From positions 27,414 to 91,413 of the forward strand of contig JBEKAC010000008.1 of assembly GCA_050018395.1 (NCBI GenBank): 64,000 bases of DNA, in the 5' to 3' direction. A program made the position numbers and the translations under genes. The stretch is from Dehalococcoidales bacterium (lineage in GTDB: Bacteria; Chloroflexota; Dehalococcoidia; Dehalococcoidales; RBG-16-60-22). Position 1 is the first letter of the stretch, and each line of letters starts with the position of its first letter. The notes under the pieces were generated by a model. The model worked only from the letters and a program-made list of their open reading frames with translations, was not told the origin of the DNA and did no database searches. Shown here piece after piece: positions 9,175 through 42,182 of the stretch.

Positions 9175-9214
9175 AAGTACCCCTGCCGGGACTCTAACCC
9201 GGGCACGCGGTTTA
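9175..9214 (-). other. relic 3' half of a tRNA-Arg(CCT) gene (att-like direct repeat)
   Basis: 39 of 40 nt identical to 20681-20720, i.e. tRNA positions 37-73 plus 3 nt downstream. The single mismatch (9195) changes the invariant C56 of the T loop. Confidence 0.85.
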
Positions 9215-9286
9215 TTAGTCCATGGCACTTCCACCTTTTAACTACCTCTCTTTCCCCGGATGTAATACTTTCGTGATTATTCGCCG

Positions 9287-9308
9287 CGGCATTTTATGAT
9301 TTTTCCAG
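9287..9308 (+). promoter_or_regulatory. shared upstream motif GCGGCATTTTATGATTTTTCCA (copy 1)
   Basis: It ends 83 nt before the cupredoxin ATG. A near-identical copy (one extra A) lies in the same orientation 89 nt before the start of the PQQ/cox operon (20565-20587, minus strand). Confidence 0.5.
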
Positions 9309-9391
9309 ATATCATACTTTACAATTTAGATGTATTGGTCGGTTTATGTCCGGGCTTTGTCTTAATGCATTAGTGAAAAGGAGAAAAAATT

Positions 9392-9871
9392 ATGAGCAAA
9401 ATCTTTTCCGCGGGCCGCAGGTATTTCCTGGTTTTTGCGGCATTAACGGCCCTCCTGGTCCTCTCGGCCTGTTCGTCATCCACGGCGACCACCACCACCC
9501 AACCCCCGCTCACCACCACCACCCCGCCGGTAACGACTACCACGCCGCCGGTGACGACTACCACCCCGCCGGTCGGCCAGCCGGTCACTATCAATCTGGT
9601 TGCCCAGAACATGGCTTTTGACCAGAGTACCATTACAGTTTCCGCCGGCGCCCAGGTGACCATCAACTTTAATAACAAAGACAGCGGCATACCGCATAAC
9701 TTTTCCCTCTACACGGATTCCTCCGCCTCCAAATCGCTGTTTATCGGGCAGACCATCACCGGTCCCAAGACCATTACTTATACGTTTACCGCGCCCGCCA
9801 CGCCCGGCAATTACTTTTTCCGGTGCGATGTGCATCCTACCATCATGACCGGCACATTCGCGGTGCAATAG
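9392..9871 (+). CDS. type-1 (blue) copper cupredoxin lipoprotein
   Basis: Signal peptide with lipobox LSAC, a Thr/Pro-rich linker, then a 95-aa cupredoxin module carrying a His...Cys-x2-His-x3-Met ligand set (IPHNF ... FFRCDVHPTIM). Confidence 0.8.
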   Translation: MSKIFSAGRRYFLVFAALTALLVLSACSSSTATTTTQPPLTTTTPPVTTTTPPVTTTTPPVGQPVTINLVAQNMAFDQSTITVSAGAQVTINFNNKDSGIPHNFSLYTDSSASKSLFIGQTITGPKTITYTFTAPATPGNYFFRCDVHPTIMTGTFAVQ

Positions 9872-9872
9872 C

Positions 9873-10868
9873 ATGGTGAATACACAGACAGTCGCGACTG
9901 ATATCGACAGCGCCCAGCCCGCCGGTGACGAGGTCATCCGCTGCGAGCGGCTGACGAAAAAGTACCCGGAGAACATCCTGGCGGTGGACGGGCTCGATAT
10001 GGTGGTGCATTGCGGGGAGATCTTTGGGCTGCTCGGGCCCAACGGCGCCGGCAAGACGACTACCGTCGGCATGCTGACTTCCCTGGTCGTGCCTACCGCC
10101 GGCAAGGCTCTGGTGGCCGGGATCGACGTTGTGGCTCACCCGGCCCTGGTCAGACAGCTCATCGGCGTCGTCTCGCAGACCAACAACCTGGACCGGGCGC
10201 TGACCGTCTGGGAAAACCTTTATTATCACGGGCGTTTTTTCGGTATGAGCGCCCGGCAGAGCCGCGAAGCGGCAGACCGGCTGCTCGTCGAGTTTCGTCT
10301 CACCGAACGCGCCAAGGCGGATGTGATGACCATCTCCGGCGGCATGGCCAAGCGGCTCCAGGTGGCGCGCGCTTTAATGCACAGCCCCTCCGTCCTTTTC
10401 CTGGATGAGCCCACCGCCGGGCTTGACCCGCAGAGCCGCCTCGCTTTGTGGGAAGTACTCAATAAAGCGCACACGGAAGGACAGACCATCCTGATGACGA
10501 CCCATTATATGCAGGAGGCGGATACCGTCTGCGAACGCATCGCTATCATGGACCACGGGCGCATCCTGGCTTCGGACTCCCCGAAGAACCTCAAGCAATC
10601 GGTCGGGGCGGACAGCATCATGACGATATCGGCCACGGGCAACCTCGAGGCCCTGGCCAAGCTGCTTAAAGAGCGTGTCGAAGGTGTCACCGGGAGCCAG
10701 CAGCTCGACGGCACGATACAGCTCCGGCTCAAAGGCGCCTGGGGCGTTTTACCCAGGGTCGTCTCCGTCGCCGAGCAGGGGGGCTATAATATCACCGATC
10801 TATCCGTCACTGAGCCTACCCTGGAAACCGTCTTCATCGGCCTGACCGGAAAGGAATTGCGTGACTGA
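9873..10868 (+). CDS. ABC transporter ATP-binding protein (DrrA/NodI-like)
   Basis: Walker A GPNGAGKTT, signature ISGGMAKRL, Walker B LFLDEPT. Its ATG lies 1 nt after the cupredoxin stop. Confidence 0.9.
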   Translation: MVNTQTVATDIDSAQPAGDEVIRCERLTKKYPENILAVDGLDMVVHCGEIFGLLGPNGAGKTTTVGMLTSLVVPTAGKALVAGIDVVAHPALVRQLIGVVSQTNNLDRALTVWENLYYHGRFFGMSARQSREAADRLLVEFRLTERAKADVMTISGGMAKRLQVARALMHSPSVLFLDEPTAGLDPQSRLALWEVLNKAHTEGQTILMTTHYMQEADTVCERIAIMDHGRILASDSPKNLKQSVGADSIMTISATGNLEALAKLLKERVEGVTGSQQLDGTIQLRLKGAWGVLPRVVSVAEQGGYNITDLSVTEPTLETVFIGLTGKELRD

Positions 10869-11740
10869 TGAACACTAAAGCCTGCGTGAGAACATTCCCC
10901 GTGCCGGAACCCGGGAAATCGATGGCGGCGGCCAGCAGTACCGCGTTCGGCGCCCTCCTGTTACGGGATTTAGTCGTCTTGAGGAAAAGCCTGGGCATTT
11001 TCATCGCGCGCACGCTGATCCAGCCTTTCCTGCTGGTCTTTGTTTTCCTTTATGTATTTCCGCTGATCGGCGAGGGCGTGGGCGGCGGGTCGGCGGGCGG
11101 CGAATCGCTTTTCGCGACGATACTGGTGGCCGGCGTGGTGGGGCTCTCAATAATGTTCCAGGGCATCCAGGCCGTGGCGCTGCCGCTGGCTACCGAGTTC
11201 GGCTACACCAAGGAAATCGAAGACCGGGTGCTGGCGCCGCTGCCGGTATCGCTGGTAGCGATGGGCAAAGTAGTGGCCGGCGCCATCCAGGGCATCGTCG
11301 CGGCGGTCATCGTTTTCCCGATAGCGTCAATTATTCATGCCCACGGCGTGCACCCCAACCTGGTTGTGGACTGGCCCGTCCTGCTCACCCTCATTCCCCT
11401 TTCTGCTGTCATGACGTCCGGTCTCGGCCTGGTGCTCGGCACCGTCATTCAGCCGCGCAATATCAGCGCGATGTTCGGCTTCATCATCCTACCCATGACC
11501 TTCCTCGGCGGCACCTATTACCCGTGGACGGCGCTGGAGGCAGTCAAGGTGGGCGGTTTTTCCTGGCTGCAGGCCCTGGTCTGCGTCAACCCCCTGATCT
11601 ACGTCACCGAGGGGTTCCGTGCCGCCCTGACCCGGGCGCCGCACATGCCGCTGTACGTCGTTTACCCGGTGCTCACCGGGTTCTGTGTTGTGCTTTTAGG
11701 CGTTGGCTGCCGGGCCTTCCGCCGCCGGGTCATCAGCTAA
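10868..11740 (+). CDS. ABC-2 type transporter permease
   Basis: Multi-pass hydrophobic protein. Its start overlaps the ATPase stop (TGATG). The exact start is uncertain. Confidence 0.7.
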   Translation: MNTKACVRTFPVPEPGKSMAAASSTAFGALLLRDLVVLRKSLGIFIARTLIQPFLLVFVFLYVFPLIGEGVGGGSAGGESLFATILVAGVVGLSIMFQGIQAVALPLATEFGYTKEIEDRVLAPLPVSLVAMGKVVAGAIQGIVAAVIVFPIASIIHAHGVHPNLVVDWPVLLTLIPLSAVMTSGLGLVLGTVIQPRNISAMFGFIILPMTFLGGTYYPWTALEAVKVGGFSWLQALVCVNPLIYVTEGFRAALTRAPHMPLYVVYPVLTGFCVVLLGVGCRAFRRRVIS

Positions 11741-11970
11741 TCCCACCATCCGGTGATAAAAGTCACAGAATTACGCTCCGGCTAAGGCTAAAATGAAAAT
11801 AAGGGTGGAGGGGAGAGAGGGAAAAGGAAGAAGGTGATGTGGCAGTGAGAATGGACTTAAGAGAAAGCGAAGGTTCCTGAGCTCCTCGCGAAAGACAAAA
11901 AGCCCCGGCTGATTTACAACGGGCATTTGGCGATGGAAACCAAAACGGAGGAGTAATGGAACGAAGCCCA

Positions 11971-12010
11971 GGGGCAGGCGCTCCAGCTAAAGAGGCCTGC
12001 TCCTTTTTTA
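11971..12010 (+). terminator. possible intrinsic terminator
   Basis: GGGGCAGGC ... GCCTGCTCC forms an imperfect stem followed by TTTTTT (12004-12009). It lies about 230 nt beyond the permease stop, so the assignment is weak. Confidence 0.3.
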
Positions 12011-12053
12011 TACGCTTTTATTAAAAGAACAGGCGTTAGTTATTGATATCGTT

Positions 12054-12935
12054 TTATATCTGGAAAACAATACGGTCGATAATCATCATGCCGTACAGGG
12101 CGGCAATGTAAAAAATGGAATAGACGTAAAGCCGCCGCGCCGCCCCGGAAGACCCTTTAAAATTCATACGCAGCGCCAGGTAAAGAAAACCGGCACCCAG
12201 GCAGCCCGCCGTCCCCGCATAGATAAAGCCCATCCCCGCCGCCGGTACGAGCAGCAGCGTCGTGATGACCAGCAGCACCGCACAGCCGGTTATCCAGATG
12301 TTCACGCCCTTTTCCGGCAGCATTTTCAGCCCCGCCCGTGCGTAATCCTCCCGGCGGAAGGCGGCCAGCGTCCAGAAATGGGGCAGTGTCCAGAGGGCGA
12401 TGATGGCCGCCAGCAGCAACGGCGTCAGCCCGATGCCCTGTTTTACCGCCACCCAACCAATCAGCGGCGGCATGGCCCCGATACCGCTGCTGATGACGGC
12501 GCTCCAATAGGTACGCCGTTTCAACCAGATGGTATAAGGCAGGACATAATAAACTAGCGCCGCCGCAGCCAGCAAGGCTGCCGTCCGGTTGACCATCGCG
12601 TTAAGGATAAGCACACCGGCCAGGCCCAGCCCCAGCCCGAATGCCAGCGCGTAGCCGGGCCTGACGTGGCCGGAGGGTAAAGGCCGCTGGCAGGTGCGCG
12701 CCATCAACGCGTCGATGTCCCGGTCGAAGTAAGAGTTGAACGTGTTGGCGGCCGCCGCCACGCAGCCTCCGCCCAGCAGCGTGTAAAACAGCGTCAGCGG
12801 CGGCGGCGTGCCCTTAACGGCCAGGAACATCGCCGCGGCGGCGGTGATGAGGTGGGGGAAAATCGCCCGCGGCTTGGCCAGGCTCAGGTAAGCCGTCCAC
12901 GGCCTTTGCGTCAGTTTTAGCGTTATTGTCGCCAA
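12054..12935 (-). CDS. ctaB: protoheme IX farnesyltransferase (heme O synthase)
   Basis: UbiA-family membrane protein with NSYFDRDIDALMARTCQRPLPSG. It is the last gene of the cox operon. Confidence 0.85.
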   Translation of the reverse strand: MATITLKLTQRPWTAYLSLAKPRAIFPHLITAAAAMFLAVKGTPPPLTLFYTLLGGGCVAAAANTFNSYFDRDIDALMARTCQRPLPSGHVRPGYALAFGLGLGLAGVLILNAMVNRTAALLAAAALVYYVLPYTIWLKRRTYWSAVISSGIGAMPPLIGWVAVKQGIGLTPLLLAAIIALWTLPHFWTLAAFRREDYARAGLKMLPEKGVNIWITGCAVLLVITTLLLVPAAGMGFIYAGTAGCLGAGFLYLALRMNFKGSSGAARRLYVYSIFYIAALYGMMIIDRIVFQI

Positions 12936-12953
12936 TTTTTTACCTCGCCATCG

Positions 12954-13520
12954 TTAACGGACGATGAAAATCGTCGTGAAAACCAGCAGCCAGATCAAAT
13001 CGATAAAATGCCAGTAAAGCGACCCTATCTCCACGCCGACCGAGTTGCCGGCGGTAAAGCGGTGCCGCGCCGTGCGCGCCAGAAGCGCCAGCATCAGTAA
13101 TACTCCCCCGAAAACATGCAGCGCGTGCACGCCGGTCAGCAGGAAGAAGATGGAGCCGTAGGCGTTGGTCCAGGGCCGGAAAGACTCGTGCAGCCACTCC
13201 CAGCCGGTTATCCCCAGGAAAGACGCCCCCAGCAGGACCGTAACCAGTAGGCCGATGAACAGCCCCTTTTCCCGTCCCTTTTTTATCATGTAGCCGCCCA
13301 GCCAGACCGCGATGCTGGAAAGCAGCAACAGGCCGGTATTTATGGCCGGCAGCGTTGCCAGCGGGTGCTGCGGCGGCCAGGGGGTATCGTGCCCCCGCAG
13401 GTAATAATAGGTCCAGAACAAAGCCCCGAAGAGAAACGTCTCGGAGATGAGAAAGAGTACGATGCCCATGCGCATCGGGGAGGAAGGCGCTTTTTCCCGG
13501 GCAACCGTCGTATCTTTCAT
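12954..13520 (-). CDS. ctaE: cytochrome c oxidase subunit III
   Basis: Tracked ORF 12954..13706, trimmed to the ATG at 13520 (MKDTT...), which lies 1 nt after the coxI stop. Contains the hydrophobic FLISETFLFGALFW and HALHVFGG motifs. Confidence 0.8.
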   Translation of the reverse strand: MKDTTVAREKAPSSPMRMGIVLFLISETFLFGALFWTYYYLRGHDTPWPPQHPLATLPAINTGLLLLSSIAVWLGGYMIKKGREKGLFIGLLVTVLLGASFLGITGWEWLHESFRPWTNAYGSIFFLLTGVHALHVFGGVLLMLALLARTARHRFTAGNSVGVEIGSLYWHFIDLIWLLVFTTIFIVR

Positions 13521-13521
13521 A

Positions 13522-15561
13522 TCAGGCTTCTCCCTGGTTCTGCGCGCTGTCGGCGTCGTCCGGCTTTCCCAGGCGGGCGTGCGGCGCGCTGGATACGCCG
13601 TGGAGGTGCGGCCTGTCCAGCACCTCCGGGATCTCCTTAAAGTTATCCTCCGGCGGCGGCGAGGACACCATCCATTCCAGCGTCCGCGAGCCCCAGGGGT
13701 TGTCACCGGCGATAACGTTGCGCTTGAAGCTCGACCGTATATTCATTACGAGCACCACCAGCCCGGCAAAGACCAGGAACCCTCCCACGGCCGTGGCGAT
13801 ATGCAACGGCTGGAAATTGGAAGAGAGGTCATACGCGGCGGTGCGCCGCCGCATCCCTTCCAGTCCCAGCCCCAGCATCGGCAGGACCAGCAGGAACGTC
13901 CCCAGCGTCATTAAAAGCCACTGGATTTTACCCAGCCCTTCACGCAGCATCCGGCCGGTCACCTTGGGGAACCAGTAGTAAAAGGCCGCCATGACCGGCA
14001 TTAAAAAACCGCCGAAGAACATGGCGTGAAAATGCCCCACCACCCAGTAGGAATCGTGCAGGTAAAGGTCGACGGGCACGATGCCCAGCGGCACGCCGGT
14101 CAGCCCCCCGATGAGGAACAATATCACCGCGGAAAACACGAAAATCAGCGGGGTTTGCAGCCGCATCTTGCCCATCCAGGTAGTGGCCACCCAGGCAAAG
14201 ACCTTCACGCCGGTCGGCACGGCCACCAGCAGCGTGGTGACCATGAAAGGTATGCGCAGCATCGCCGGCATGCCGGAAGCGAACATATGATGGGCGAAGA
14301 CCACCGTCCCGCCGAAGGCAATCCCCAGGGTGGATATCGCCACGCCTTTGTAGCCGAAAAGCGGTTTGCGCACGAAAACGGGGATAATATCGCTGATCAT
14401 CCCCAGCCCGATAAGCACAAAAACATACACGGCGGGATGGGAATAGAACCAGAAAAGATACTGGTAAAGCAGCGGCTGGCCCCCCATCGCCGTATTGAAA
14501 AACCCGAAGCCGAGGGTCCGCGAAAGCAGCAGCATGATGAACGCCATGCTGATGAACTGCGTAAAGACCAGCGTCAGCCCCACCGTGCCAAATGTCGCCC
14601 AGATGAAAATGGGCATGCGGAAAAAGGTCATGCCGGGGGCGCGCATTTTCATGATGGTGGTGATGATGTTGACCGCCGTCAGGATTGAGGAAATGCCGAT
14701 TAAGAATACCGCGATGAGTATCAGGCTCATGCCCGCCGGCTCGTAGCTGGTGCTTAAAGGCGGGTAAGCCGTCCAGCCGGTATCGAAGCCGCCCGCCATG
14801 AAGCTGAACATCGCCAGCAGCGCGGCCGGCGGCGTCAGCCAATAGGTAAAAGCGTTCAGCCGCGGGAAAGCTACGTCGCGCGCCCCGATCTGGAGCGGGA
14901 CGAAGTAGTTCATCATACCGGAAAATATCGGCAGGACGACCATGAACAGCATGATGATGCCGTGGTCGCTGATGACCGACTCGTAGGCGGTGCTGTTCAG
15001 CAGCCCCAGGTGCGGGTCGGCCATGTGGATGCGCCCGATGAGCTGGAGCACTACCGCGAAAGGCAGCAGGCCCAGCCCGGTTACGAAATACTGGATACCG
15101 ATGACTTTATGATTGGTATCCACGCTGAAATAGCGCTGCCAGCCGCTTTTAGGCGGCTCAACAGTTTCTTTGGGCGCGGCGCCGATAGCCCAGCGCCACC
15201 AGTGGTTGAAAACGCCCAGGGCTATCAGGTAGGCGATGACGCCGGTCATGATGCCGATGGTCAGCACGCCGTCGGCGGACCAGGCCGGCCGCCCTATCAG
15301 GACGCGAACCAGCATTGTTAACCCTACCCCGACGCCCGTACCCGCCAGGCCGGTCAGAGCACCCCGGGCGGCGTCAAGACTCAAAAGCTTCTTCAGGCCC
15401 AGCGCCGCAAGGATATAGGTAAACAGGCCGGCCAGCCCTCCCACGACCAGCACCGGCACCGGTTTCCAGACCGCCATGCCCAGCGCCAGCCGCGCCAGCA
15501 ACACGATGCCCGCCCCGATTACCCCGCCCCCCAGAGCTTTTAATATGTTTACATTACGCAA
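13522..15561 (-). CDS. ctaD: cytochrome c oxidase subunit I (A2-type, YSHP motif) with an N-terminal extension of about 145 aa
   Basis: Motifs FWFYSHPAVYVFVL (CuB His and cross-linked Tyr), FAHHMF, and HFHAMFFGG. The conserved core begins near WQRYFSVDTNHKVIGIQYF at about residue 140. Confidence 0.95.
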   Translation of the reverse strand: MRNVNILKALGGGVIGAGIVLLARLALGMAVWKPVPVLVVGGLAGLFTYILAALGLKKLLSLDAARGALTGLAGTGVGVGLTMLVRVLIGRPAWSADGVLTIGIMTGVIAYLIALGVFNHWWRWAIGAAPKETVEPPKSGWQRYFSVDTNHKVIGIQYFVTGLGLLPFAVVLQLIGRIHMADPHLGLLNSTAYESVISDHGIIMLFMVVLPIFSGMMNYFVPLQIGARDVAFPRLNAFTYWLTPPAALLAMFSFMAGGFDTGWTAYPPLSTSYEPAGMSLILIAVFLIGISSILTAVNIITTIMKMRAPGMTFFRMPIFIWATFGTVGLTLVFTQFISMAFIMLLLSRTLGFGFFNTAMGGQPLLYQYLFWFYSHPAVYVFVLIGLGMISDIIPVFVRKPLFGYKGVAISTLGIAFGGTVVFAHHMFASGMPAMLRIPFMVTTLLVAVPTGVKVFAWVATTWMGKMRLQTPLIFVFSAVILFLIGGLTGVPLGIVPVDLYLHDSYWVVGHFHAMFFGGFLMPVMAAFYYWFPKVTGRMLREGLGKIQWLLMTLGTFLLVLPMLGLGLEGMRRRTAAYDLSSNFQPLHIATAVGGFLVFAGLVVLVMNIRSSFKRNVIAGDNPWGSRTLEWMVSSPPPEDNFKEIPEVLDRPHLHGVSSAPHARLGKPDDADSAQNQGEA

Positions 15562-15588
15562 TACTAAATCCTTTTAAGATTCTTCTTG

Positions 15589-16716
15589 TTATTGCACGAT
15601 AAATTCGCCGGTCATGGTGGTGGGGTGGACGTCACAGCGGAAGAAGTACTTGCCCGGCGTAGTGGGCGCCTGGAACATGTACATCGCGCTGTTAACGCCG
15701 GTAATAATCTTCCCGGTAAATATCGCTTTGGTCGCGGTGCTGTCGGTATAGACCGAGAAATTGTGGGGCACGTTGTTGTCCTTGTTGAAGAAATTAATCA
15801 TCACTCCGGCGCCGGCGGGCACAGTGATGGTGCTTTTATCAAAGGCCAGGTTTTGCGCCGTCAGGTCTATGGTGACCTCCTGGGTGGTCGGCGTCGGCGT
15901 GGCAGTGACGGCGGGTTGATGCTGTTTAACCCAGTCGGCAAACTGGGCGGCAGTGACCACATAGACCGGCGCCGTCATCCCGGTATGGTTGAAGCCGCAG
16001 AGCTGGCTGCACTGTACCAGGAAATTCCCCAACGCCGTCGGTGTAATGCGCAGCATCGGGTTAAGCCCGGGCACCGCGTCCTGCTTCGGTCCCCACTGCT
16101 GCACCCAGAAGGAATGGATAACATCCTCCGACTTGATGTTGAACATTAGCGTCTGGTTGTCCGGCACTTCCAGCGCGTAGGAGGTTATATTGTAATCGGG
16201 ATAATCGAACTGCCAGGCGAATCTGGAGGCCGTCACGTTGATGACCAGCGTGTTCTGCTGGGTAACGTTGCCCCCGGCCGCTGTGCCCGGCACCGTCGCG
16301 CCCAGGGAATAAACGCTCTGCGTACCGCCCGCCATCAAGTCCGGCGGAGAGATTTCGTTGAGTACCCGCGCCCCGTAAAAGCTTAACGTCACCACGATAA
16401 TCAGCGGGATGATCGTCCAAGTTATTTCCAGCGGCGCGTTGCCCCGTATCGGGCGGGCGTCGGTATCGTCGCCTTTGGCGCGGCGGAAGAAAATCAGGGC
16501 GTAGACGAATATCGTCACCACCACCACGAAGACCACACCCGCGATGGCCAGCAGGACCTTGATGAAGTTATCGACGTAGGTCCTTTCCTGGCTGGCGGGG
16601 TGAGGTATGAAATTGAAATGCAGGAAGAAATAGGCAACGGCGCCGGAGACCAACACTATCACCAGGCACATGATGAGCATGTGGTGCCAATCTTCCAGGC
16701 GCCGTCGGGGTTCCAT
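15589..16716 (-). CDS. ctaC: cytochrome c oxidase subunit II fused to a C-terminal type-1 copper cupredoxin domain
   Basis: N-terminal TM helices. CuA centre: DVIHSFWV ... CSQLCGFNHTGM. After a Thr/Pro linker comes a 95-aa module (15592-15876) paralogous to the 9392 protein (NVPHNF ... FFRCDVHPTTM). There is no CxxCH motif. Confidence 0.9.
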   Translation of the reverse strand: MEPRRRLEDWHHMLIMCLVIVLVSGAVAYFFLHFNFIPHPASQERTYVDNFIKVLLAIAGVVFVVVVTIFVYALIFFRRAKGDDTDARPIRGNAPLEITWTIIPLIIVVTLSFYGARVLNEISPPDLMAGGTQSVYSLGATVPGTAAGGNVTQQNTLVINVTASRFAWQFDYPDYNITSYALEVPDNQTLMFNIKSEDVIHSFWVQQWGPKQDAVPGLNPMLRITPTALGNFLVQCSQLCGFNHTGMTAPVYVVTAAQFADWVKQHQPAVTATPTPTTQEVTIDLTAQNLAFDKSTITVPAGAGVMINFFNKDNNVPHNFSVYTDSTATKAIFTGKIITGVNSAMYMFQAPTTPGKYFFRCDVHPTTMTGEFIVQ

Positions 16717-16778
16717 CCCGTTTCCCTCCGAGATGCAAAATTAACAGGGCTGCTTAACCGGATATCGTACGGTTCTTT

Positions 16779-17996
16779 CTATTGTACTACAAAAGTCCCT
16801 ATCATCGAAGTGGGATGCACGTCACACCGGAAGAAATAACTACCGGGCGTGCTCGGCGCGGTAAAAGTATACGTTACGGTATTCGTCCCCCGGATTATCT
16901 GCCCGATGAAGATGGATTTTGAAGCGGTGGAGTCCGTATACAGGGCGAAGTTGTGCGGTATGCCGGTGTCTTTGTTGGTAAAAACCAGCGTCACGCTGGC
17001 GCCGGCCGGCACCGTGATGGTGCTAAGGTCGAAGGCCATGCCTTGCGCCGTCAGGTTTATCGTCACGCTCTGCGGCGCAGCGGTGGGGGTAGGCGTGCCC
17101 GTGGCGGTCGGAGTGGGCGTTGGCGTCGATGTGCCCTGTACCAGGAAGTTGACCTTGGCCACTACCGGCGGGTTGAGGGGTGTCGAATCGTTATTGACGA
17201 GCTCGATAGCGATGAAGTGCGAGCCCACGCCCACGCCACCGAAGGTGTAGCTGGTCGTGGTGGCATGCGCGAAGATGCCGTGGTCCGGCTCGGCCGGGAC
17301 GCCCTGGGTGGTGGGCGCGTCAACATCCAGGTAATAATGAATATGCCCCTCGCCCGGGACATTGGCCTGGTCAATCTTGTCCACCAGGTTGAAATTGGAT
17401 ATCTGGACCGTCGCGGTGATATCTCCGGGCGGCAGGACGGAGCCTTCTTTAGGCGAGGTAATGACCGCGGTAGCCGGGCCGATTTCCGGCAGCACCGTGT
17501 CCGTCACCGAGGTCACGACCGCCGGGCTTAAAGGCGCGTGGTCGTTGTTCACCAGCTCCACGTAGAACGTGTGCGGCCCACCGCCCACGTTGTGCCAGGT
17601 GTAAGATGTGGCGATGGTGGCGGCATAGGTCCCGGGTGCGGTGACCGCGGCCTTGGTCGGGTCGGTCGGCGGCTGTACGTCGAGGAAGTAGTGGATATGT
17701 CCCTCGCCGGCGACTTTCGCCTGGCCCATTTTATCCACGATGGAGAAATTGCTCACCTGGACGGTGACCGTGACATCACCGATTTGGGGTATCACCCCGC
17801 CCGTCGGCGAGGTTATCGTGATGCCGGGAGCCGGCGCAGAGGTCGTCGGCGGCGGCGTGGTCGTCGGCGGAGTGGTCGATGGCGGTGTGGTCGTCGGCGG
17901 CAGCGTAATAGGACTGCTGCTGGAACAGGCCGTCAGCGCCAGGGCGATGCAGAGCAGTATCGCGGGGAGCAGTAAAAACAATTTTTTCATCCTCAT
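16779..17996 (-). CDS. lipoprotein with two GEGHIHY-repeat (DUF4399-like) modules and a C-terminal cupredoxin
   Basis: Tracked ORF trimmed to MRMKKLF... (lipobox LTAC). Thr/Pro linker, two modules of about 100 aa each carrying GEGHIHYFLDV / GEGHIHYYLDV, then a cupredoxin (16782-17066; IPHNF ... FFRCDVHPTSM). Confidence 0.75.
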   Translation of the reverse strand: MRMKKLFLLLPAILLCIALALTACSSSSPITLPPTTTPPSTTPPTTTPPPTTSAPAPGITITSPTGGVIPQIGDVTVTVQVSNFSIVDKMGQAKVAGEGHIHYFLDVQPPTDPTKAAVTAPGTYAATIATSYTWHNVGGGPHTFYVELVNNDHAPLSPAVVTSVTDTVLPEIGPATAVITSPKEGSVLPPGDITATVQISNFNLVDKIDQANVPGEGHIHYYLDVDAPTTQGVPAEPDHGIFAHATTTSYTFGGVGVGSHFIAIELVNNDSTPLNPPVVAKVNFLVQGTSTPTPTPTATGTPTPTAAPQSVTINLTAQGMAFDLSTITVPAGASVTLVFTNKDTGIPHNFALYTDSTASKSIFIGQIIRGTNTVTYTFTAPSTPGSYFFRCDVHPTSMIGTFVVQ

Positions 17997-18093
17997 TTTC
18001 TTCCTCTCAAACCGGGGCAGGTGCGGGTGGGACCCTGAAAAACCCCCCGTCCGCACCTGCCCGTGCTTTACCCGTGTTTGGAACCGTTTAGCT

Positions 18094-20475
18094 TTAGGGG
18101 CCGCCTCCTGTGGACGCCGTCACGGTGACCACTACCTGGATCACCACCGGCGTGGTCAGCGGCGTATTATCGTTGTTCACCAGTTCCACGAAGAAGGTGT
18201 GCGTGCCCGCCGCTACGTTCTGCCAGGTGTAGGAGGTCGCGGCCGTGGCGGCGTAAGTGCCCGCGGCGGTCGTGGCGGCCTGGGTCGGGTCGGTCGGCGG
18301 TACCACGTCCATGTAGTAGATGATATGGCCTTCGCCGCTGGCGATGGCCTGACCGATTTTATCCACCAGGTTGAAGTTGCTCACGCTGACACTGATGGTG
18401 ATGTCGCCGGGCTTTATGGATGCGCGGTTTTGCGGCGACGTGATCGTTATTTTCGGCGTCGGCGCCGTCACGGTAACGGTCACCTTAGCCACCACCGGCG
18501 GGTTAAGCGGCGTATGGTCGTTATTCACCAGCTCAACCGAGAAGGTATGCGTCCCCGGCGTGACGTTGCTGAAGGTATAGGTCGTATTGGCCGTGGCGGT
18601 ATAAACACCCGTGGACGTAACAGCCGGCTGGCCCTGGACGGTAGGGGCATCCACGTCCATGAAATAGTGCAGGTGCCCTTCGCCGGCCACGTTAGTATCG
18701 CCAAGCAGCGCGACCAGCTTGAAGTTAAGCGCCATCGCGGAAACGGTGATGTTCCCCGATTCGAGGCTGGTCCCGTCCAGCGGCGTCATCGCCAGGGCGG
18801 GAGAATTAGCGCCCAGTTTTAAGGCCAGCACTACCGAGAAAGGAGAACCGAGACCCACCGGCAGGAGCATGGTATCACCGGCGAAAGCCGGCCAGGCATT
18901 GACCCCGCCCGGCGCCTGGTAGCTCCACACCTGAGCGCCGGTGGTGCGGTTCAAGGCGTAGACCATACCGTCGAGGGTGGAAGTAAATACCAGGTCGTTG
19001 ACGACGGTCGCCCCGCCGACATCGAGGGAGTTGAAAGATTTATCCCAGAGGATTTTACCGGTATTCACGTCGAGGGCTACCAGTTCCCCGGTGCCCTGGT
19101 TAAAGGGTTGTGTGCCGGTCACGGCGCCCGGCGTTAAGTTGGCATACAGGTTGACGACCGGCACGTAAACAACGCCGCCGGCATAGGCCATGGGCGTCTC
19201 CACGCCGCCGAAGATGCCGGGATATACCTGGGCACCGGCAGCCGGGATGTTGACCAGCTGGTCGTTCTGGTGCATGCCCACGGGGGTCATCCAGAGAATG
19301 GCGCCGGTCTGGCGGTTGAAGGCCACCACTTTACCCAGCTTGCCGGCGCCGATGACGACGTCCTGCTGCTTGCCGCTGACGGTGGCGCTGGCGAGGATGG
19401 GCGATGCCTCGAAGTCGGCATCCGAATTATCGTGTTGATTAACCTGGGTAAACCAGGCGAGATTACCATTGGTGTCATTCAAGGCAACCAGAGAATCGGT
19501 ATAAAGGTTCGGGCCGGGCCGACTCGAGCCGTTGGGGTAGGTGGGGGTCCCCGGCCAGGGAGCCGGATTGCCGATACCCCAGAAAGACGTACCGGTACTG
19601 GTGTCTACAGCCGGGGGATACCAGGCCCCGCCGCCGCTGTTCACATCTTTGTTGCCCCAGATATCCGCGGAATCGACGGTATCAAAATTCCACATTATCT
19701 TGCCTGAAGTCTGGTCAAGAGCATAAATCGCCCCGAAGCCGCCGCCGGTATAGAAATCACCGCCGCCGGTGCCGGGTACAGTAGAGACCAGCACGAGGTT
19801 GCCGTAGACGTTCGGCTGGATATCGATGCCGCTGGTCGGCTGCTGGGATATCCGCGTGGACCATAGCTGCGCGCCGGTGTTCACATCCAGTGCTACGATG
19901 GTGTACGGGTCCGAGTTGCCGAAGATTTTACCCCATCCTACGGCGATACCGTTGGGCCCGATGTTCGATTCGTTAAAGAGGTGTTTCCACTTAATTTTGC
20001 CCGTCGCCAGATCGACGGCGAAGATGTTGTTGCCCAGGTCCTGGAAGTAGGCCGTGTTGCCCATGATAATGGGCGTGGTTGACGCCGAGCCGAAGGCGCC
20101 GACCCCGGGCAGCGGTACCGCCCAGGCGGCCCCGAGGGTATTCACGTTGGCCGCGTTAATCGTTGAATCAGTAGTGGCGCGGCTGTTGGTATAGTCGCGG
20201 TTTGGCAGCGGCCAGTCTTTCACGTACTGGCTTACCTCGGGGGGTATTGCCGGTGAGGTCACCGGCGGTGTAGTCGTGGGTGGCGTAGTGGTGGGTGGCG
20301 TTGTCGTGGGTGGCGTTGTTTTAGTTGGCGTAGTCGCAGGTGGACTGGTCGTAGGCGGGGTGGTGGTGGGGGGAGTGGTAGTGTTGGAACTCGATGTGCA
20401 GGACGTTACCAGCAGCATCACTACCATTAACAGGGATGCCAGAACGATGGTTGGCCGTCGCCAATCTTTGAACAT
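18094..20475 (-). CDS. PQQ-like beta-propeller lipoprotein with two C-terminal GEGH-repeat modules
   Basis: Lipobox VTSC and a Thr/Pro linker. Seven to eight blade signatures of the form (A/V)(L/V)D..TG...W (FAVDLATGKIKW, VALDVNTGAQLW, YALDQTSGKIMW, ...). Two C-terminal modules carry GEGHLHYFMDV and GEGHIIYYMDV. Confidence 0.75.
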   Translation of the reverse strand: MFKDWRRPTIVLASLLMVVMLLVTSCTSSSNTTTPPTTTPPTTSPPATTPTKTTPPTTTPPTTTPPTTTPPVTSPAIPPEVSQYVKDWPLPNRDYTNSRATTDSTINAANVNTLGAAWAVPLPGVGAFGSASTTPIIMGNTAYFQDLGNNIFAVDLATGKIKWKHLFNESNIGPNGIAVGWGKIFGNSDPYTIVALDVNTGAQLWSTRISQQPTSGIDIQPNVYGNLVLVSTVPGTGGGDFYTGGGFGAIYALDQTSGKIMWNFDTVDSADIWGNKDVNSGGGAWYPPAVDTSTGTSFWGIGNPAPWPGTPTYPNGSSRPGPNLYTDSLVALNDTNGNLAWFTQVNQHDNSDADFEASPILASATVSGKQQDVVIGAGKLGKVVAFNRQTGAILWMTPVGMHQNDQLVNIPAAGAQVYPGIFGGVETPMAYAGGVVYVPVVNLYANLTPGAVTGTQPFNQGTGELVALDVNTGKILWDKSFNSLDVGGATVVNDLVFTSTLDGMVYALNRTTGAQVWSYQAPGGVNAWPAFAGDTMLLPVGLGSPFSVVLALKLGANSPALAMTPLDGTSLESGNITVSAMALNFKLVALLGDTNVAGEGHLHYFMDVDAPTVQGQPAVTSTGVYTATANTTYTFSNVTPGTHTFSVELVNNDHTPLNPPVVAKVTVTVTAPTPKITITSPQNRASIKPGDITISVSVSNFNLVDKIGQAIASGEGHIIYYMDVVPPTDPTQAATTAAGTYAATAATSYTWQNVAAGTHTFFVELVNNDNTPLTTPVVIQVVVTVTASTGGGP

Positions 20476-20526
20476 TTAGACCTCCTCATCCGTTTTGTAT
20501 TTGCCGCGATATCCTTACCGCGACAA

Positions 20527-20587
20527 AAATTACTAATCTCTTTTAAATAATGTCAAACGCATAATGGAAAAATCATAAAATTGCCGC
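20527..20587 (-). promoter_or_regulatory. promoter plus shared upstream motif (copy 2) of the PQQ/cox operon
   Basis: On the minus strand: GCGGCAATTTTATGATTTTTCCA (20587-20565), 8 nt, TTGACA (20556-20551), 18 nt, TAATTT (20532-20527). The start codon is at 20475. Confidence 0.45.
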
Positions 20588-20683
20588 CAAAGAAATTACA
20601 AAACTATGACGTTTCCCGGGCCGGGAGGAGAAACGATGATATTGCGCGCAGTGCAAATAAGGAAAGTAAAGTAAAGAATTAAG

Positions 20684-20756
20684 TACCCCTGCCGGGACTC
20701 GAACCCGGGCACGCGGTTTAGGAAACCGCTGCTCTATCCGCCTGAGCTACAGGGGC
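20684..20756 (-). tRNA. tRNA-Arg (anticodon CCT)
   Basis: GCCCCTGTAGCTCAGGCGGATAGAGCAGCGGTTTCCTAAACCGCGTGCCCGGGTTCGAGTCCCGGCAGGGGTA. It folds as a cloverleaf: 7-bp acceptor stem (G1-U72), D stem GCTC/GAGC, anticodon stem GCGGT/ACCGC with loop TTCCTAA, T stem CCGGG/CCCGG with loop TTCGAGT. CCA is not encoded. Confidence 0.9.
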
Positions 20757-35688: not shown

Positions 35689-35720
35689 ACTTTGCTCCTC
35701 GGAATATAGTAGCCTGCTAT

Positions 35721-38354: not shown

Positions 38355-38358
38355 ATTT

Positions 38359-39636: not shown

Positions 39637-39658
39637 TTTGCGGTGTCCTCATTCGTGA

Positions 39659-40552
39659 TTATATCACGTCAGCGAAAGACTTCTCCATGCGCCGGAAGTA
39701 AAACGCTCCTGAAGTAAGCACGATTACCATAATAACCGCCGAAACAGCCAGTAAGCCGCCCGGCGGATTTGTGCCCAGGATAGCCCAGCGGAAGCCTTCT
39801 ATTACTCCTGTCATGGGATTTAGCCCGTAGAATATCTGAAACCGCTTAGGTAAAAGGCTGCTGGAATAGACCACCGGCGAGGCCAAGAGCCAGAGCTGGA
39901 TGAGAAACGGCACAATATACTGGACGTCACGGTAACGCACATTTATCGCCGAGAGCCATAATCCGACTCCCAGGGAGGTAATGACAGCCAGAAGTAAAAA
40001 AACTGGCAGCAATAGTATTCTTAACGTGGGGGCATAGCTAAAGTAAAACATCAAGCCGATTAAAATGAGGAAGGCAATGGTAAAATCGACAATAGGCGAG
40101 AGAATCCCCGACACAGGCATAATCAACCGGGGGCAGTAGACTTTTTGAACGAGAGCGTAACCTGAAATCAGGCTGGCGGTCGACCGGCTGAGACCTTCGG
40201 CAAACAGTGTCCAGGGAAGCAGCGCGGTGTAAGTGAAGAGAGGGTAGGGGATTCCTTCCGAGGGTACCTTGGCTAAAGTCCCAAAGAACAGGGTAAACAC
40301 TATCATCATCATCAGGGGTTGAATAATGGCCCAGGCAAACCCTAAAAGGGTCTGTTTGTAGCGTAACTTGACCTCACGCCAGGTCAGGAAGTAAAGTAAC
40401 TCACGATACTCCCAGAGCTCTCGGAAATTGACCGGTACCCATCCGGACAAAGGTCGGATAACGGTGACGGGAGGCGTATCTCTACCCAAATGATGCTTTG
40501 AGACATCTGCCGCCCTGGCCGATGGCGAATTTGTTTTATTCTGACCTCTCAT
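39659..40552 (-). CDS. wzm: polysaccharide ABC-2 exporter permease (Wzm/TagG-like)
   Basis: ABC-2 permease with the typical ELWEYRELLYFLTWREVKLRYKQTLLGFAWAI N-terminal motif. Confidence 0.8.
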   Translation of the reverse strand: MRGQNKTNSPSARAADVSKHHLGRDTPPVTVIRPLSGWVPVNFRELWEYRELLYFLTWREVKLRYKQTLLGFAWAIIQPLMMMIVFTLFFGTLAKVPSEGIPYPLFTYTALLPWTLFAEGLSRSTASLISGYALVQKVYCPRLIMPVSGILSPIVDFTIAFLILIGLMFYFSYAPTLRILLLPVFLLLAVITSLGVGLWLSAINVRYRDVQYIVPFLIQLWLLASPVVYSSSLLPKRFQIFYGLNPMTGVIEGFRWAILGTNPPGGLLAVSAVIMVIVLTSGAFYFRRMEKSFADVI

Positions 40553-41127
40553 CTCTCGATGTTCACTTCCGTGTTTCCGTCATTATCCCCCCACCCAAGT
40601 ATAGCGTCGCTTACTGCCGCCAAGCTAGCAACAATGGCGTCCGGTGTTACCCCATCGCTTTCTGTCGGTGAAGGACCCCCTATCAGGATAGTCTTACAAC
40701 CCGCAACTTTGCCTAATTCCATGTCTTTCTGAAGGTCTCCTACCACAAATGATTGTTCCAGGTCGATATTCAAATCTCTGGCTGCCTGGAGTACCAGGGC
40801 TGGCTTTGGTTTACGACACTCGCAATTATCATCGGGATGATGAGGACAATAATAAACGCCATCAATATAGGCGCCTTTGCGGGCAAGTTCTTCCTGCATT
40901 TTCTTATGGATTCTATTCAAGACTTCCTCGTCGAAATAGCCCCTTGCAATACCCGATTGGTTCGTAATAATAATCACCTTGAAGCCACACTTATTCAGCT
41001 TTTTAATAACCTTCGCCGCCTCGGGAAAGAGCACGAAGTCTTCGGGGCGGCGGCAATAGTTTACGTCTTTGGCTATGGTACCATCACGGTCAAAGAACAC
41101 TGCCCTATTCATAGGATTACGTACCAT
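40549..41127 (-). CDS. gmhB: D-glycero-D-manno-heptose 1,7-bisphosphate phosphatase
   Basis: HAD motif VFFDRDGTI, the zinc-finger-like CPHHPDDNCECRKPKP, and GDLQKD. Confidence 0.8.
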   Translation of the reverse strand: MVRNPMNRAVFFDRDGTIAKDVNYCRRPEDFVLFPEAAKVIKKLNKCGFKVIIITNQSGIARGYFDEEVLNRIHKKMQEELARKGAYIDGVYYCPHHPDDNCECRKPKPALVLQAARDLNIDLEQSFVVGDLQKDMELGKVAGCKTILIGGPSPTESDGVTPDAIVASLAAVSDAILGWGDNDGNTEVNIER

Positions 41128-41145
41128 GAGTCCGGGACTTCCGAT

Positions 41146-41709
41146 TTATAGTGCCTCAATTTTTTCTTTAATCCGGCAGGGTATGATATGGGCAAGAACC
41201 ATGTGCGCGTCTTCAACCTGCTGGTAGTTCTTTTTGGACAGGACAATTGATTTATCCGCGAGGTCTTTCAGTTTACCGCCGCCGAAGCCGATGAAACCGA
41301 TGGTTACCGCTCCATTCTTGCGGGCATACTCTATGGCCCGGAGAACGTTAGGGGAATTACCAGAAGCGCTGATACCGATAACCACATCTCCTTTTACTAG
41401 TTGGTCTATGAGTTGCTCTTCAAAAATCCGATCATAGCCAATATCGTTAGCCAGGGAGGTAATGAAAGCCATGTTATCGGCTATGCAGTTTGCCCGGACG
41501 CGGGGCTTGCCCGCTACGGCTGTCCCAATCTGGAGGTCGCGGGCAAAGTGTATCGCCGTGGTGGCGCTGCCACCGTTGCCCATAATGAAGATTCGTTTAC
41601 GCTTCCTGTAAGCATCGAAGATTATATTTGCCGCTTCTTCGATATCGTGCGTGGAAAGCTCCTCAAGGCACTCTTGCAGTCCCGCTAAATATTCCTCAAT
41701 CAGTGCCAT
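41146..41709 (-). CDS. gmhA: sedoheptulose 7-phosphate isomerase (SIS domain)
   Basis: IFIMGNGGSATTAIHFARDL and GISASGNSPNVLRAIEYARKNG. First gene of the operon. Confidence 0.8.
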   Translation of the reverse strand: MALIEEYLAGLQECLEELSTHDIEEAANIIFDAYRKRKRIFIMGNGGSATTAIHFARDLQIGTAVAGKPRVRANCIADNMAFITSLANDIGYDRIFEEQLIDQLVKGDVVIGISASGNSPNVLRAIEYARKNGAVTIGFIGFGGGKLKDLADKSIVLSKKNYQQVEDAHMVLAHIIPCRIKEKIEAL

Positions 41710-42006
41710 ATTGCCTTACCTGTCTTACACTCGAACTGATTATTCTCATTTTCCACCAGGTAAATCTAGGTTGTTAGCCCTTATTTAGAATAGGTATCAA
41801 CCCTCAATTGGGATGGTAAATTCGTTTCGTTTTAAAAAATTGTTACGATAGATATTCACTGTCAGTATATTACAAACACCAATATTTGCCAACGGTCCAT
41901 AGATACCAGCTAAAAGCCGGATATATCATTTAGATAGGTAACAATCGCTGTTTTGTGGTGTTCCTTTCTATTATCACTAGGTTACGCGTAAAATGAAGCG
42001 GGAATC

Positions 42007-42029
42007 TTGCTAATAATTTGCTGATAGAC
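42007..42029 (+). promoter_or_regulatory. paired heptamer TGCTAAT-N4-TGCTGAT (site 3)
   Basis: TTGCTAATAATTTGCTGATAGAC, 22/23 identical to 20819-20841. It ends 114 nt before the tRNA 5'-half relic. A 12-nt direct repeat ACCATTTGGTAT (42048-42059 and 42120-42131) lies between them. Confidence 0.5.
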
Positions 42030-42143
42030 GGAATGAACCGTGTTAACACCATTTGGTATTTTACGAACAAAACAGGATTTTCACTATTGATACAAACATT
42101 CTAATTTGTACGTAGAACTACCATTTGGTATGGTGGCAACAGA

Positions 42144-42182
42144 TTAGGAAACCGCTGCTCTATCCGCCCGAGCTACAGGGGC
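42144..42182 (-). other. relic 5' half of a tRNA-Arg(CCT) gene
   Basis: 38 of 39 nt identical to 20718-20756 (tRNA positions 1-39). Identity stops exactly at the tRNA 5' end. The one mismatch (42169) changes the invariant A14. Confidence 0.85.

Follow-up and report, generated by a model that had tools for sequence, protein, structure and literature searches.

The window, a stretch of 64,000 nucleotides from the genome of an uncultured Dehalococcoidia bacterium, contains one tRNA-Arg gene with foreign DNA on both of its sides, and the old halves of this gene lie 33 kb apart. The main pieces are:

9169-9214, minus strand: 3' relic, the displaced 3' part of the tRNA gene, from position 36 to 9 nt past the tRNA 3' end
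9215-20682: left (cox/copper) block, 11.5 kb, from Pfam scans and composition
20683-20756, minus strand: intact tRNA-Arg(CCT) gene, the only intact one called (ARAGORN and Rfam)
20757-42143, minus strand: right (glycan) island, 21.4 kb, from Pfam scans and composition
42144-42182, minus strand: 5' relic, the displaced original 5' half (tRNA positions 1-38), at the far junction of the right island

The relics were located by BLAST, with the tRNA plus 300 nt on either side as the query against the window. All three tRNA pieces lie on the same strand, and both partial copies are far above chance. The 5' relic is identical to the intact gene at 38/39 positions (E = 4e-14), carries the substitution A14G and loses identity at the last base of the anticodon loop. 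The 3' relic is identical at 44/46 positions (E = 6e-16) and carries C56A; its second mismatch lies 4 nt past the tRNA end, where the relic has G and the DNA downstream of the intact gene has A, and no similarity to the intact copy extends past +9. A first-pass annotation had described split halves around an intact copy, which ARAGORN, Rfam and BLAST confirm, and both substitutions are as it gave them, although the 3' match proved 6 nt longer. The intact gene itself is 100% identical to the tRNA of L032, L033, L035 and L042.

The genes of the right island all lie on the tRNA strand and serve heptose and glycan synthesis or encode methyltransferases and a wzm/wzt-type ABC exporter. With a GC content of 0.50 and a GC3 of 0.58, against a GC3 of 0.74-0.75 in the flanks, its base composition is foreign. 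The left block comprises genes for a PQQ beta-propeller protein, a cupredoxin, cox2-cox1-cox3 and heme O synthase (UbiA family), followed on the opposite strand by ABC2, ABC and cupredoxin genes. Its GC3 of 0.78 is host-like, and the composition scan that the annotation had proposed separates the two segments. Pfam scans of all main open reading frames of the cox block returned respiratory, copper-binding and ABC transporter genes only and no integrase, which bears out the earlier description of a native-looking block free of mobility genes.

The ends of the right island carry the following features:

20820-20836, minus strand: integrase-side arm pair, TTAGCA-AATTA-TTAGCA, overlapping the integrase stop codon
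20833-21048, minus strand: C-terminal remnant of a tyrosine integrase, about 70 aa, with the catalytic Tyr region LGHATISTTLDLYSH, pointing to the tRNA 5' end
20887-20915, minus strand: sigma-70-like promoter, TTGACG-17-TATAAT, within the integrase remnant
21095-21196, minus strand: C-terminal remnant of an rve-type (IS) transposase (Pfam rve_3, E = 3e-6), adjoining the truncated integrase
42008-42024, minus strand: far-end arm pair, TCAGCA-AATTA-TTAGCA, within the island at 120-136 nt from the 5' relic
42192-42220, minus strand: candidate native tRNA promoter, TTGCAG / 17 nt / TAGAAT, still attached to the 5' relic

The window retains no full-length integrase. The remnant covers positions 137-169 of the 172 of the Pfam Phage_integrase profile (E = 5.5e-5) with 23.5 bits, slightly below the Pfam cut-off of 27.1 bits, and is homologous to the full-length integrases of L031 (71% identity) and L100 (78%). 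On the strand that also carries the tRNA, its stop codon at 20833 is followed after 76 nt by the tRNA 5' end. An integrase of the SSV type, with attP inside the gene, was rejected because the frame stops before reaching the tRNA and because the integrated relatives L031, L019 and L050 keep intact integrase genes.

The window has three pairs of the form TTAGCA-N5-TTAGCA, where chance predicts 0.22, and all three stand at predicted att-arm places. The integrase-side pair lies upstream of the tRNA, at a distance of 64-80 nt from the gene and 95-111 nt from the loop centre; it also follows the integrase stop codon in L022, L028, L042 and L100 and is present in inverted form in L031. The far-end pair occupies the same relative position as in the complete elements L091, L092 and L101. 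In the attP of the right island the arms stand at about -90 and +120 nt, the overlap matches at 7/7 positions, with identity through all seven loop bases, and the core half-site is perfect. L091 is a complete, independent element of 7.8 kb with the same layout: a full-length integrase immediately upstream of the tRNA, 5' polarity, and a 5' relic of tRNA positions 1-43.

Because of the paired arm sites at both ends, the C-terminal integrase remnant and the layout of L091, a normal insertion that replaced the 5' half of the tRNA gene is well supported for the right island. It was inserted by a Dehalococcoidia family of tyrosine integrases whose crossover site is the 7-nt anticodon loop. The first reading in the annotation, two islands that both crossed over in this loop, therefore holds for the right island, an insertion in its own right, but only partly for the left block. 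The annotation had also called the replacement of a 5' half unusual; it is a minority configuration, but one already known, since 159 of the 3919 islands in Islander have a 5' tDNA fragment and 3760 a 3' fragment (Hudson, Lau & Williams 2015, PMC4383910, Table 1). As in those 5'-fragment islands, an intact tRNA gene is accompanied by an upstream 5' fragment in the same orientation and by island-borne integrase sequence, and the replaced part of the tRNA gene is supplied by the island. Unlike them, the window retains only an integrase stub and has, in addition, a displaced 3' fragment on the other side of the tRNA.

The sigma-70-like promoter inside the integrase remnant agrees with the consensus at 11/12 positions, and its -35 and -10 elements do not vary among the window, L022, L048 and L028, four genomes in which the integrase remnants are truncated at different points; in L028, homology starts right at the -35 element. 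The counterpart in L100 is TTGACG-17-TACAAT. We propose that this promoter, located in the 3' end of the integrase gene, drives the rebuilt tRNA, and the remnant has probably survived an IS insertion and deletions because this promoter-like site lies inside it. The probable retention of the remnant for its promoter had escaped the first-pass annotation. The candidate native promoter would have been left behind with the original 5' half. Its -10 element, read by eye, ends 9 nt before the 5' relic, and relatives have comparable TAnAAT elements 15-25 nt upstream of their tRNA; it scores under the threshold of the promoter scan.

Two further features lie beyond the 3' relic:

8244-9080, minus strand: FRG-domain gene (Pfam FRG, E = 1e-27; PADLOC PDC-S15, E = 5.5e-48)
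9101-9117, plus strand: inverted arm pair of an older island, 52-68 nt downstream of the 3' relic

L100 has exactly the 20-nt sequence found at this arm, TGCTAATCTTTTGCTAATCC, and L031 has a similar one, with the integrase gene coming next after it. The inverted pair is the integrase-side arm of an older island with the usual 3' polarity, and the FRG gene, which has a very low GC content (GC3 0.24), is what remains of its cargo. The PADLOC match makes this gene a candidate anti-phage defence gene. L100 shows the order integrase, arm pair, tRNA, spacer, inverted arm pair and FRG gene, with no cox block. This third island, reduced to an FRG gene and an arm on the 3' relic, had also been missed before.

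The position of the cox block between the two tRNA copies is less simply explained. A 46-bp direct repeat brackets it, with the 3' fragment (position 36 to +9) downstream on the same strand, and L100 and L048 lack the block; these observations agree with the annotation's idea of a loop-crossing left island. However, the block has no integrase, no TTAGCA pair and a host-like composition, and at its far junction CTAATAA stands where the loop has TTCCTAA, the junction with the 3' relic reading GGACTAATAA followed by ACCGC. Without an integrase, arm sites and the proper junction, its insertion was not the normal reaction of this integrase family. In L138 the same block (73% nucleotide identity) occurs in another genomic context, without any tRNA.

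CIMEs are att-flanked, integrase-free elements that take part in tandem accretion, as with ICESt1 and ICESt3 of Streptococcus thermophilus. The locus resembles CIME accretion in its successive occupants, in an integrase-free block between att-derived direct repeats and in older arms pushed outward. The cox block has the direct repeats and lacks recombination genes, but it is not a demonstrable CIME because one of its att-like junctions, the far one, has neither an intact overlap nor arm sites; moreover, CIME arrays are one-sided, whereas here both sides of the gene are occupied.

Taken together, the tRNA-Arg(CCT) gene is probably an integration hotspot that has experienced at least three mobile-DNA events on both of its sides. 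In a first step, an island of the usual polarity, carrying a tRNA 3' half, would have integrated downstream through the same tyrosine integrase family by exchange in the 7-nt loop and then decayed to its integrase-side arm (spacer and inverted TTAGCA pair) and the FRG gene. In a second, the 11.5-kb cox/copper block would have entered by a single crossover in the 3' part of the tRNA gene, duplicating position 36 to +9 and shifting the old 3' half and the arm downstream as the 3' relic. The crossover may be the work of RecA at the 46-bp identity, of an integrase from another element, or of an integrase of the block's own that has since been deleted. In a third, the 21.4-kb glycan island, using the same integrase family with opposite polarity and an attP with tRNA positions 1-38, would have integrated upstream, rebuilding the gene with its own 5' half and stranding the original 5' half and promoter 21 kb upstream. 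The last two steps are numbered without a fixed order. The intact gene is accordingly composed of a 5' half from the right island and a 3' half plus 9 nt from the cox block.

Since the two relics share only T36-A37-A38 (TAA) in their identity blocks, both junctions could also be the products of one reciprocal crossover. The annotation's second reading was of this kind, a 32.9-kb insert carrying its own tRNA. It would take the form of a composite circle (right island, integrase, complete tRNA-Arg and cox block) inserted once at the shared TAA. Such a circle could arise if, in a close relative, a 5'-polarity island were excised aberrantly with the help of a false att site, ATGGA-CTAATAA, on the downstream side of the neighbouring cox block, in the way that lambda picks up gal or bio. 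One exchange, GCGGT-TTCCTAA-ACCGC x ATGGA-CTAATAA-TCTGT, would reproduce both junctions and the relic overlap of exactly 3 nt, and would account for a cox block of host-like composition with no mobility genes or arms of its own. However, the attP required for this would be flanked by an arm-site pair on a single side and its overlap would match the target at only 4/7 positions, whereas the right island by itself already has a well-formed attP and the layout of L091. Six other loci have an integrase upstream of tRNA-Arg(CCT), and the cox block follows the tRNA in none of them; in L100 an intact tRNA stands between the same arms and the block is absent, and the L138 copy is beside no tRNA at all. 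A single composite insertion is therefore unlikely.

We give still less credence to the cox block as the remnant of a normal 3'-polarity island whose integrase and both arms were lost in two internal deletions near the att sites. The direct repeat, from the anticodon loop to +9, does bracket the block as in islands of that polarity, the family's integrase-side spacer begins with a sequence similar to the 9 nt that follow the intact tRNA, and L092 also shows related islands in succession at one tRNA. Yet the two deletions would have to be independent and to end 9 nt after the tRNA and inside the loop, removing TTCC; homology with L138 extends to about 30-40 nt from both boundaries, which leaves no room for element DNA; and the composition is that of the host.

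Very improbable is an assembly artefact, in which a chimeric contig joined the cox block to the 3' relic and the split halves are partly illusory. The junction of upstream flank, 5' relic and right island is reproduced in 10 independent contigs, and that of right island, tRNA and cox block by independent metagenome contigs, which come from several samples; an independent contig across 9215, the junction of cox block and 3' relic, was sought and none was found, and one conspecific contig stops near window position 10045. All conspecific contigs that were found match the window exactly, and none of them shows an empty site; the annotation's search for empty sites was answered outside the species, by L100 and L048, which lack the cox block. 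Against an artefact, two positions distinguish the relic from the intact copy, which makes it a genomic copy in its own right; an assembler would not be led astray by a 46-bp repeat when the join offers no shared sequence; the 3' relic runs straight into the spacer, arm pair and FRG gene, as in the real locus L100; and the flank on the transglutaminase side is the tRNA's ancestral neighbour in L048. Finally, insertion of the whole 32.9 kb by a transposon or IS with a 3-bp target duplication was rejected, because its ends (9215 and 42143, read inward) are not inverted repeats and the only transposase trace is the internal rve stub at 21095-21196.

Among metagenomic loci of the integrase family, 40/57 have 3' polarity and 17/57 (30%) have 5' polarity, compared with about 4% in Islander. 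A tree of 58 integrases requires at least seven switches of polarity, and places L100, of 5' polarity, as sister to the 3'-polarity L031 and L058; the target of all three is Arg-CCT. Integrase homologs or remnants lie immediately upstream of tRNA-Arg(CCT) in L022, L028, L036, L042, L048 and L100, and downstream of it and convergent with it in L019, L031, L039 and L050. The complete elements L092 and L101, of the usual 3' polarity, have identity blocks that begin at loop position 32.

Tyrosine integrases with crossover in the tRNA anticodon loop were reportedly described by Williams in 2002. The family resembles them in identity blocks bounded at the loop edges (position 32 in L092 and L101, 38 in the window) and in arm-type sites on both sides, and the inverted repeat of the anticodon stem could provide the two core binding sites. 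It differs from them in that close relatives, such as L100 and its sisters, use both polarities on one tRNA. The half-site GCGGT on the integrase side and the acceptor-stem spacing are equal in both orientations, and only the central 3 overlap bases differ. The chances are about even that one Dehalococcoidia integrase lineage repeatedly reverses polarity at a single tRNA through the two-fold symmetry of the anticodon stem-loop. Elements of 5' polarity would supply a replacement promoter within the 3' coding end of the integrase gene, and the host would retain the promoter-bearing piece as a fossil once the island decays. With both polarities and a replacement promoter, a single tRNA could be loaded from both sides; here the load would be a glycan island and a complete terminal oxidase operon.

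The tRNA-Arg locus is an unusually complete case of an already known process rather than a new one. McMurdie et al. are said to have described, in 2011, ssrA-specific genomic islands of Dehalococcoides mccartyi at the 3' end of tmRNA, with reductive dehalogenase cargo. These belong to the same class, with a small-RNA-gene target, direct repeats and repeated occupancy; unlike the present islands, they have the tmRNA 3' end as target, only 3' polarity is reported for them, and their cargo is different.

Several loci preserve ancestral flanks. In L048 the tRNA lies 75 nt from a transglutaminase-like gene, in L015 and L042 it is followed by an ABC transporter pair, and in L033 upstream DUF169 genes precede it; L035 retains a short homologous piece.

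The cox block also contains a pair of short motifs:

9291-9307, plus strand, with an inverted copy at 20565-20581: 17-bp motif, each copy about 90 nt upstream of one of the outermost operons of the block

Both copies are conserved in L138, which has no att site, and the motif was rejected as an att arm for this reason. It may instead be a shared operator or promoter of the outer operons.

The intact tRNA-Arg(CCT) gene is flanked by two partial copies of itself on the same strand, as the first-pass annotation had claimed, and both were recovered when the tRNA with 300 nt on each side was searched against the window by BLAST. Read on the tRNA strand, the 5' relic (42182-42144) comprises tRNA positions 1-38 with 38/39 nucleotides identical (E = 4e-14), and the 3' relic (9214-9169) runs from position 36 to 9 nt past the 3' end with 44/46 identical (E = 6e-16), 6 nt further than the annotation had it. 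The two identity blocks overlap only in T36-A37-A38, and the relic substitutions noted earlier, A14G and C56A, are both present. Downstream, the intact tRNA and the 3' relic cease to be similar after +9 nt. The features of the locus are as follows.

9101-9117: inverted arm pair TGCTAATCTTTTGCTAATCC, 52-68 nt downstream of the 3' relic, after a spacer
9169-9214, minus strand: 3' relic of tRNA-Arg(CCT)
20683-20756, minus strand: tRNA-Arg(CCT), the single intact copy (ARAGORN and Rfam)
20820-20836: arm pair that overlaps the integrase stub's stop codon and lies 64-80 nt before the tRNA 5' end
20833-21048: C-terminal stub of a tyrosine recombinase (Pfam Phage_integrase positions 137-169 of 172), beside an rve transposase stub
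20915-20887: promoter-like TTGACG-17-TATAAT within the integrase stub (11/12 consensus positions)
42008-42024: arm pair in the same orientation as 20820-20836, inside the right island, 120-136 nt from the 5' relic
42144-42182, minus strand: 5' relic of tRNA-Arg(CCT)

Related loci from other genomes and metagenomes place the tRNA beside genes of the window's flanks. The tRNA lies 75 nt from an ortholog of the window's transglutaminase-like gene (5920-8158) in locus L048; in L015 and L042 the genes after it are orthologous to the window's ABC pair (1786-3476; ~70% amino-acid identity); DUF169 genes of the upstream flank (69-76% identity) precede it by ~2 kb in L033, and L035 keeps a short homologous piece of that flank at its edge. 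Judged by these contexts, both relics occupy the ancestral tRNA position, and all DNA between them is therefore inserted. The transglutaminase-like gene itself consists of two overlapping frames in the window (5920-7821 and 7403-8158) and of one intact 718-aa ORF in L048; the split points either to a frameshift, and hence a pseudogene, or to a sequencing error. A scan for the 5'-half pattern in 185,579 species genomes (one per species) found 41 loci, mostly in Chloroflexota/Dehalococcoidia MAGs; all were intact tRNAs, with no displaced 5'-half relic among them. Within the species no empty site was found, all contigs from exact-protein look-ups being identical to the window.

The integrase stub scores 23.5 bits, just below the Pfam cut-off of 27.1 bits. 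Its full-length relatives adjoin tRNA-Arg(CCT) in three related loci (L031, L019 and L050), where they lie downstream of and convergent with the tRNA, the usual 3' polarity in which the island carries the tRNA 3' half. Elements of this family have a tandem pair of arm sites, TTAGCA-N5-TTAGCA, directly after the integrase stop codon and a second pair at the far end, ~110-155 nt past the crossover, which is clear in complete metagenomic elements. The 3' relics of two such elements, at tRNA-Lys(TTT) in L092 and tRNA-Lys(CTT) in L101, begin exactly at loop position 32, and the 5' relic of a complete 7.8-kb element at tRNA-Ser(CGA), L091, spans positions 1-43. Because of these relic ends, the crossover segment is placed in the 7-nt anticodon loop, bounded by the inverted-repeat stem. 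L091 has a full-length integrase directly upstream of, and in tandem with, the intact tRNA. An integrase split as in SSV was rejected: the integrase frame stops before the tRNA, and integrated relatives have intact integrase genes.

The cargo of L091 includes a MEDS-PAS sensor, a response regulator and a further integrase, a tyrosine recombinase with a zinc ribbon; the coordinates noted for this cargo are 3516-4406 and 5050-5739. MEDS-PAS/response regulators are often linked to dehalogenase loci in Dehalococcoidia. At 1-127 of L092, the 32 nt after the 3' relic are the same as in the integrase-side spacer of the resident element and include one TTAGCA site. L092 is thus another case in which related elements have occupied one tRNA in succession.

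Allowing one mismatch, the paired TTAGCA motif was observed 3 times in the whole window against 0.22 expected by chance. The right-island identity block ends exactly at loop position 38 and, together with the pairs at 20820-20836 and 42008-42024, reconstructs a well-formed putative attP: integrase, arm pair, spacer, tRNA 1-31, GCGGT-TTCCTAA-TCTGT, ~115 nt and arm pair, the same layout as in L091. The right island, which encodes a heptose/glycan pathway, methyltransferases and a wzm/wzt-type exporter, is foreign in composition (GC3 0.58 versus 0.74-0.75 in the flanks). From the attP and this composition, 20757-42143 is concluded to be a normal integration of 5' polarity, in which the island carries the tRNA 5' half. 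The polarity is as the first-pass annotation had read it but is not new: Islander records a 5' tDNA fragment in 159/3919 islands (PMC4383910). A literature search for 5'-half integration, as phrased, returned no match. Several independent metagenome contigs break off at ~39930-39952, within the wzm-like gene (39659-40552): L001 and L006 begin at 39951-39952, and the 29.9-kb contig to which L056 belongs stops at ~39927. These breaks may reflect strain-level variation or a repeat within the glycan island.

On the other side of the locus, the inverted arm pair beyond the 3' relic is followed by an FRG-domain gene with a GC3 of 0.24 and a match to PADLOC PDC-S15 (E = 5.5e-48). In L031 the same spacer and inverted pair are followed by an integrase gene; the arm next to the 3' relic therefore comes from the integrase side of an earlier island that had the usual polarity. 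The related locus L100, on contig SDBU01006978.1, has the order integrase, pair, tRNA-Arg(CCT), spacer, identical inverted pair and FRG gene, which is the window's arrangement minus the cox block. An exact look-up of the window's FRG protein matched no contig. The FRG genes (window 8244-9080; L100 975-1733) directly follow the inverted arm pair in two different organisms, and PDC-S15 is a candidate defence family; since the two proteins share only 26% identity at the same arm-adjacent position, they suggest a recurrent slot for defence cargo.

The cox block (9215-20682) encodes, in tRNA-strand order, a PQQ beta-propeller protein, a cupredoxin, cox2-cox1-cox3 and heme O synthase, followed by a conserved 180-nt spacer and, on the opposite strand, ABC2, ABC and a cupredoxin. 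Its GC3 of 0.78 is host-like, its best CoxI matches are from Dehalococcoidales, and neither an integrase nor an arm pair was found within 9215-20682. A Dehalococcoidales MAG (L138) has the block at 73% nucleotide identity between unrelated genes, with no tRNA or relic beside it, and the homology extends to ~30-40 nt from both window boundaries. Sub-modules occur in other locations in other relatives, and the ABC pair (80% identity) stands alone in another context in other Dehalococcoidales. Homologs of the PQQ protein (70-76% identity; L052, L053, L055) and of CoxI (L138-L141 and the contigs carrying P0125 and P0128) have other contexts with no tRNA-Arg adjoining, the tRNA scans covering L052, L053, L055 and L138. 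The block was not found as a native downstream neighbour of tRNA-Arg in relatives.

The cox block is bracketed by a 46-bp direct repeat, and its structure corresponds to a single-crossover (Campbell-type) insertion within the 3' part of the tRNA. The far junction reads ATGGA-CTAATAA-ACCGC, not TTCCTAA, which rules out a normal reaction of this integrase family as the source of the insertion. The crossover could have been made by RecA acting on the 46-bp identity, by an integrase from another element, or by an integrase of the block's own that was later deleted. A 17-bp inverted repeat (9291-9307 / 20565-20581) was rejected as att arms: its copies lie ~90 nt upstream of the outermost operons of the block, and both are kept in the att-free L138 (about 1070-1090 and 12140-12160). 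The motif, GGCA(A)TTTTATGATTTTTCCA, may serve the respiratory block as a shared operator or promoter. The purine-rich, apparently non-coding stretch of ~180 nt at 11802-11983, between the ABC2 and heme O synthase genes, has no Rfam match; it recurs in L138 and, at 75% identity, in L022 (7684-7859), ~7 kb downstream of the tRNA-Arg of that locus. L022 is part of contig MGNQ01000009.1.

At this locus tRNA-Arg(CCT) is an integration hotspot with three layers, which clearly exemplifies a known process. Both outer junctions could also be the product of one exchange, had a 32.9-kb circle with a hypothetical ATGGA-CTAATAA-TCTGT site recombined with the tRNA. This is unlikely: the composite attP would be flanked by arm sites on just one side and match at 4/7 overlap positions, the attP of the right island is complete by itself, and other 5'-polarity loci at tRNA-Arg(CCT), including L100, have no cox block. 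A transposon with TAA target duplication was rejected, there being neither terminal inverted repeats nor a transposase at the ends. Of the compound hotspot with oxidase cargo proposed at first, the hotspot stands, with three layers, and the oxidase operon as integrase cargo is unproven. Dehalococcoidia are usually regarded as anaerobic. Here a recombination hotspot holds a complete aa3-type oxidase and copper block, an 11-kb unit that recurs elsewhere in another Dehalococcoidales genome; these contexts agree with aerobic respiration genes moving as modules in the class, the mobility of the block being putative. One tRNA gene can accept DNA from both sides, and such two-sided loading leaves complementary front and back relics that can be mistaken for a split gene.

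A tRNA lies no more than 350 nt from the stop codon of 57 metagenomic integrases; 40 of these genes are convergent with it and 17 run in tandem. The tandem (5'-polarity) cases are mostly at tRNA-Ser, with others at Arg(TCG), Arg(CCT), Trp and Thr. With ~30% of sampled loci in this family of 5' polarity, tools seeking only 3' fragments would miss these. At least seven polarity switches are needed in a neighbour-joining tree of 58 integrases, in which L100 groups as sister to L031 and L058; all three sit at Arg-CCT, L100 with 5' polarity and the other two with 3' polarity. Frequent switching is a family-level lead. Outward from the integrase, both polarities present the arm pair, the spacer motif ttttagcttcaaaa, the xCCCCTG acceptor strand, a stem-loop arm of ~17 nt, and then GCGGT and TTnnnAA; only the overlap middle and the identity of the arm (D or T) differ. 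This shared symmetry may be what lets the integrases switch.

Six loci have a C-terminal integrase remnant directly upstream of tRNA-Arg(CCT); the truncation points differ, leaving about 70 residues in the window, 50 in L022, 45 in L048, 25 in L028 and 90 in L036, and 286 in L042. Within the promoter-like site of the stub, TTTGACGA and GTATAATA are invariant in an alignment of the window, L022, L048 and L028, and homology with L028 starts right at the -35 element. The L100 counterpart is TTGACG-17-TACAAT, and the L031 integrase, of 3' polarity, lacks a -10 element at the matching spacing. A TAGAAT element, read by eye, lies 9 nt upstream of the 5' relic. Insertion of 5' polarity cuts the tRNA off from its native promoter; the island probably brings a replacement, and selection would then keep the promoter-bearing piece of the integrase gene. 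The putative promoter inside the integrase gene is a family-level lead. It offers a simple and testable account of the persistence of integrase stubs beside tRNA genes, namely that they would have been turned into the gene's promoter.

A tRNA-Ala(CGC) gene at 60922-60997 is followed by a lower-GC stretch (0.49) to 64000 that contains a TauE-family gene and a gene for a B12-binding radical SAM protein, weakly matched by PADLOC PDC-M51A, and 60922-64000 may be another tRNA-associated island. In the related locus L061, tRNA-Arg(CCT) and tRNA-Ala(CGC) are only 31 nt apart.
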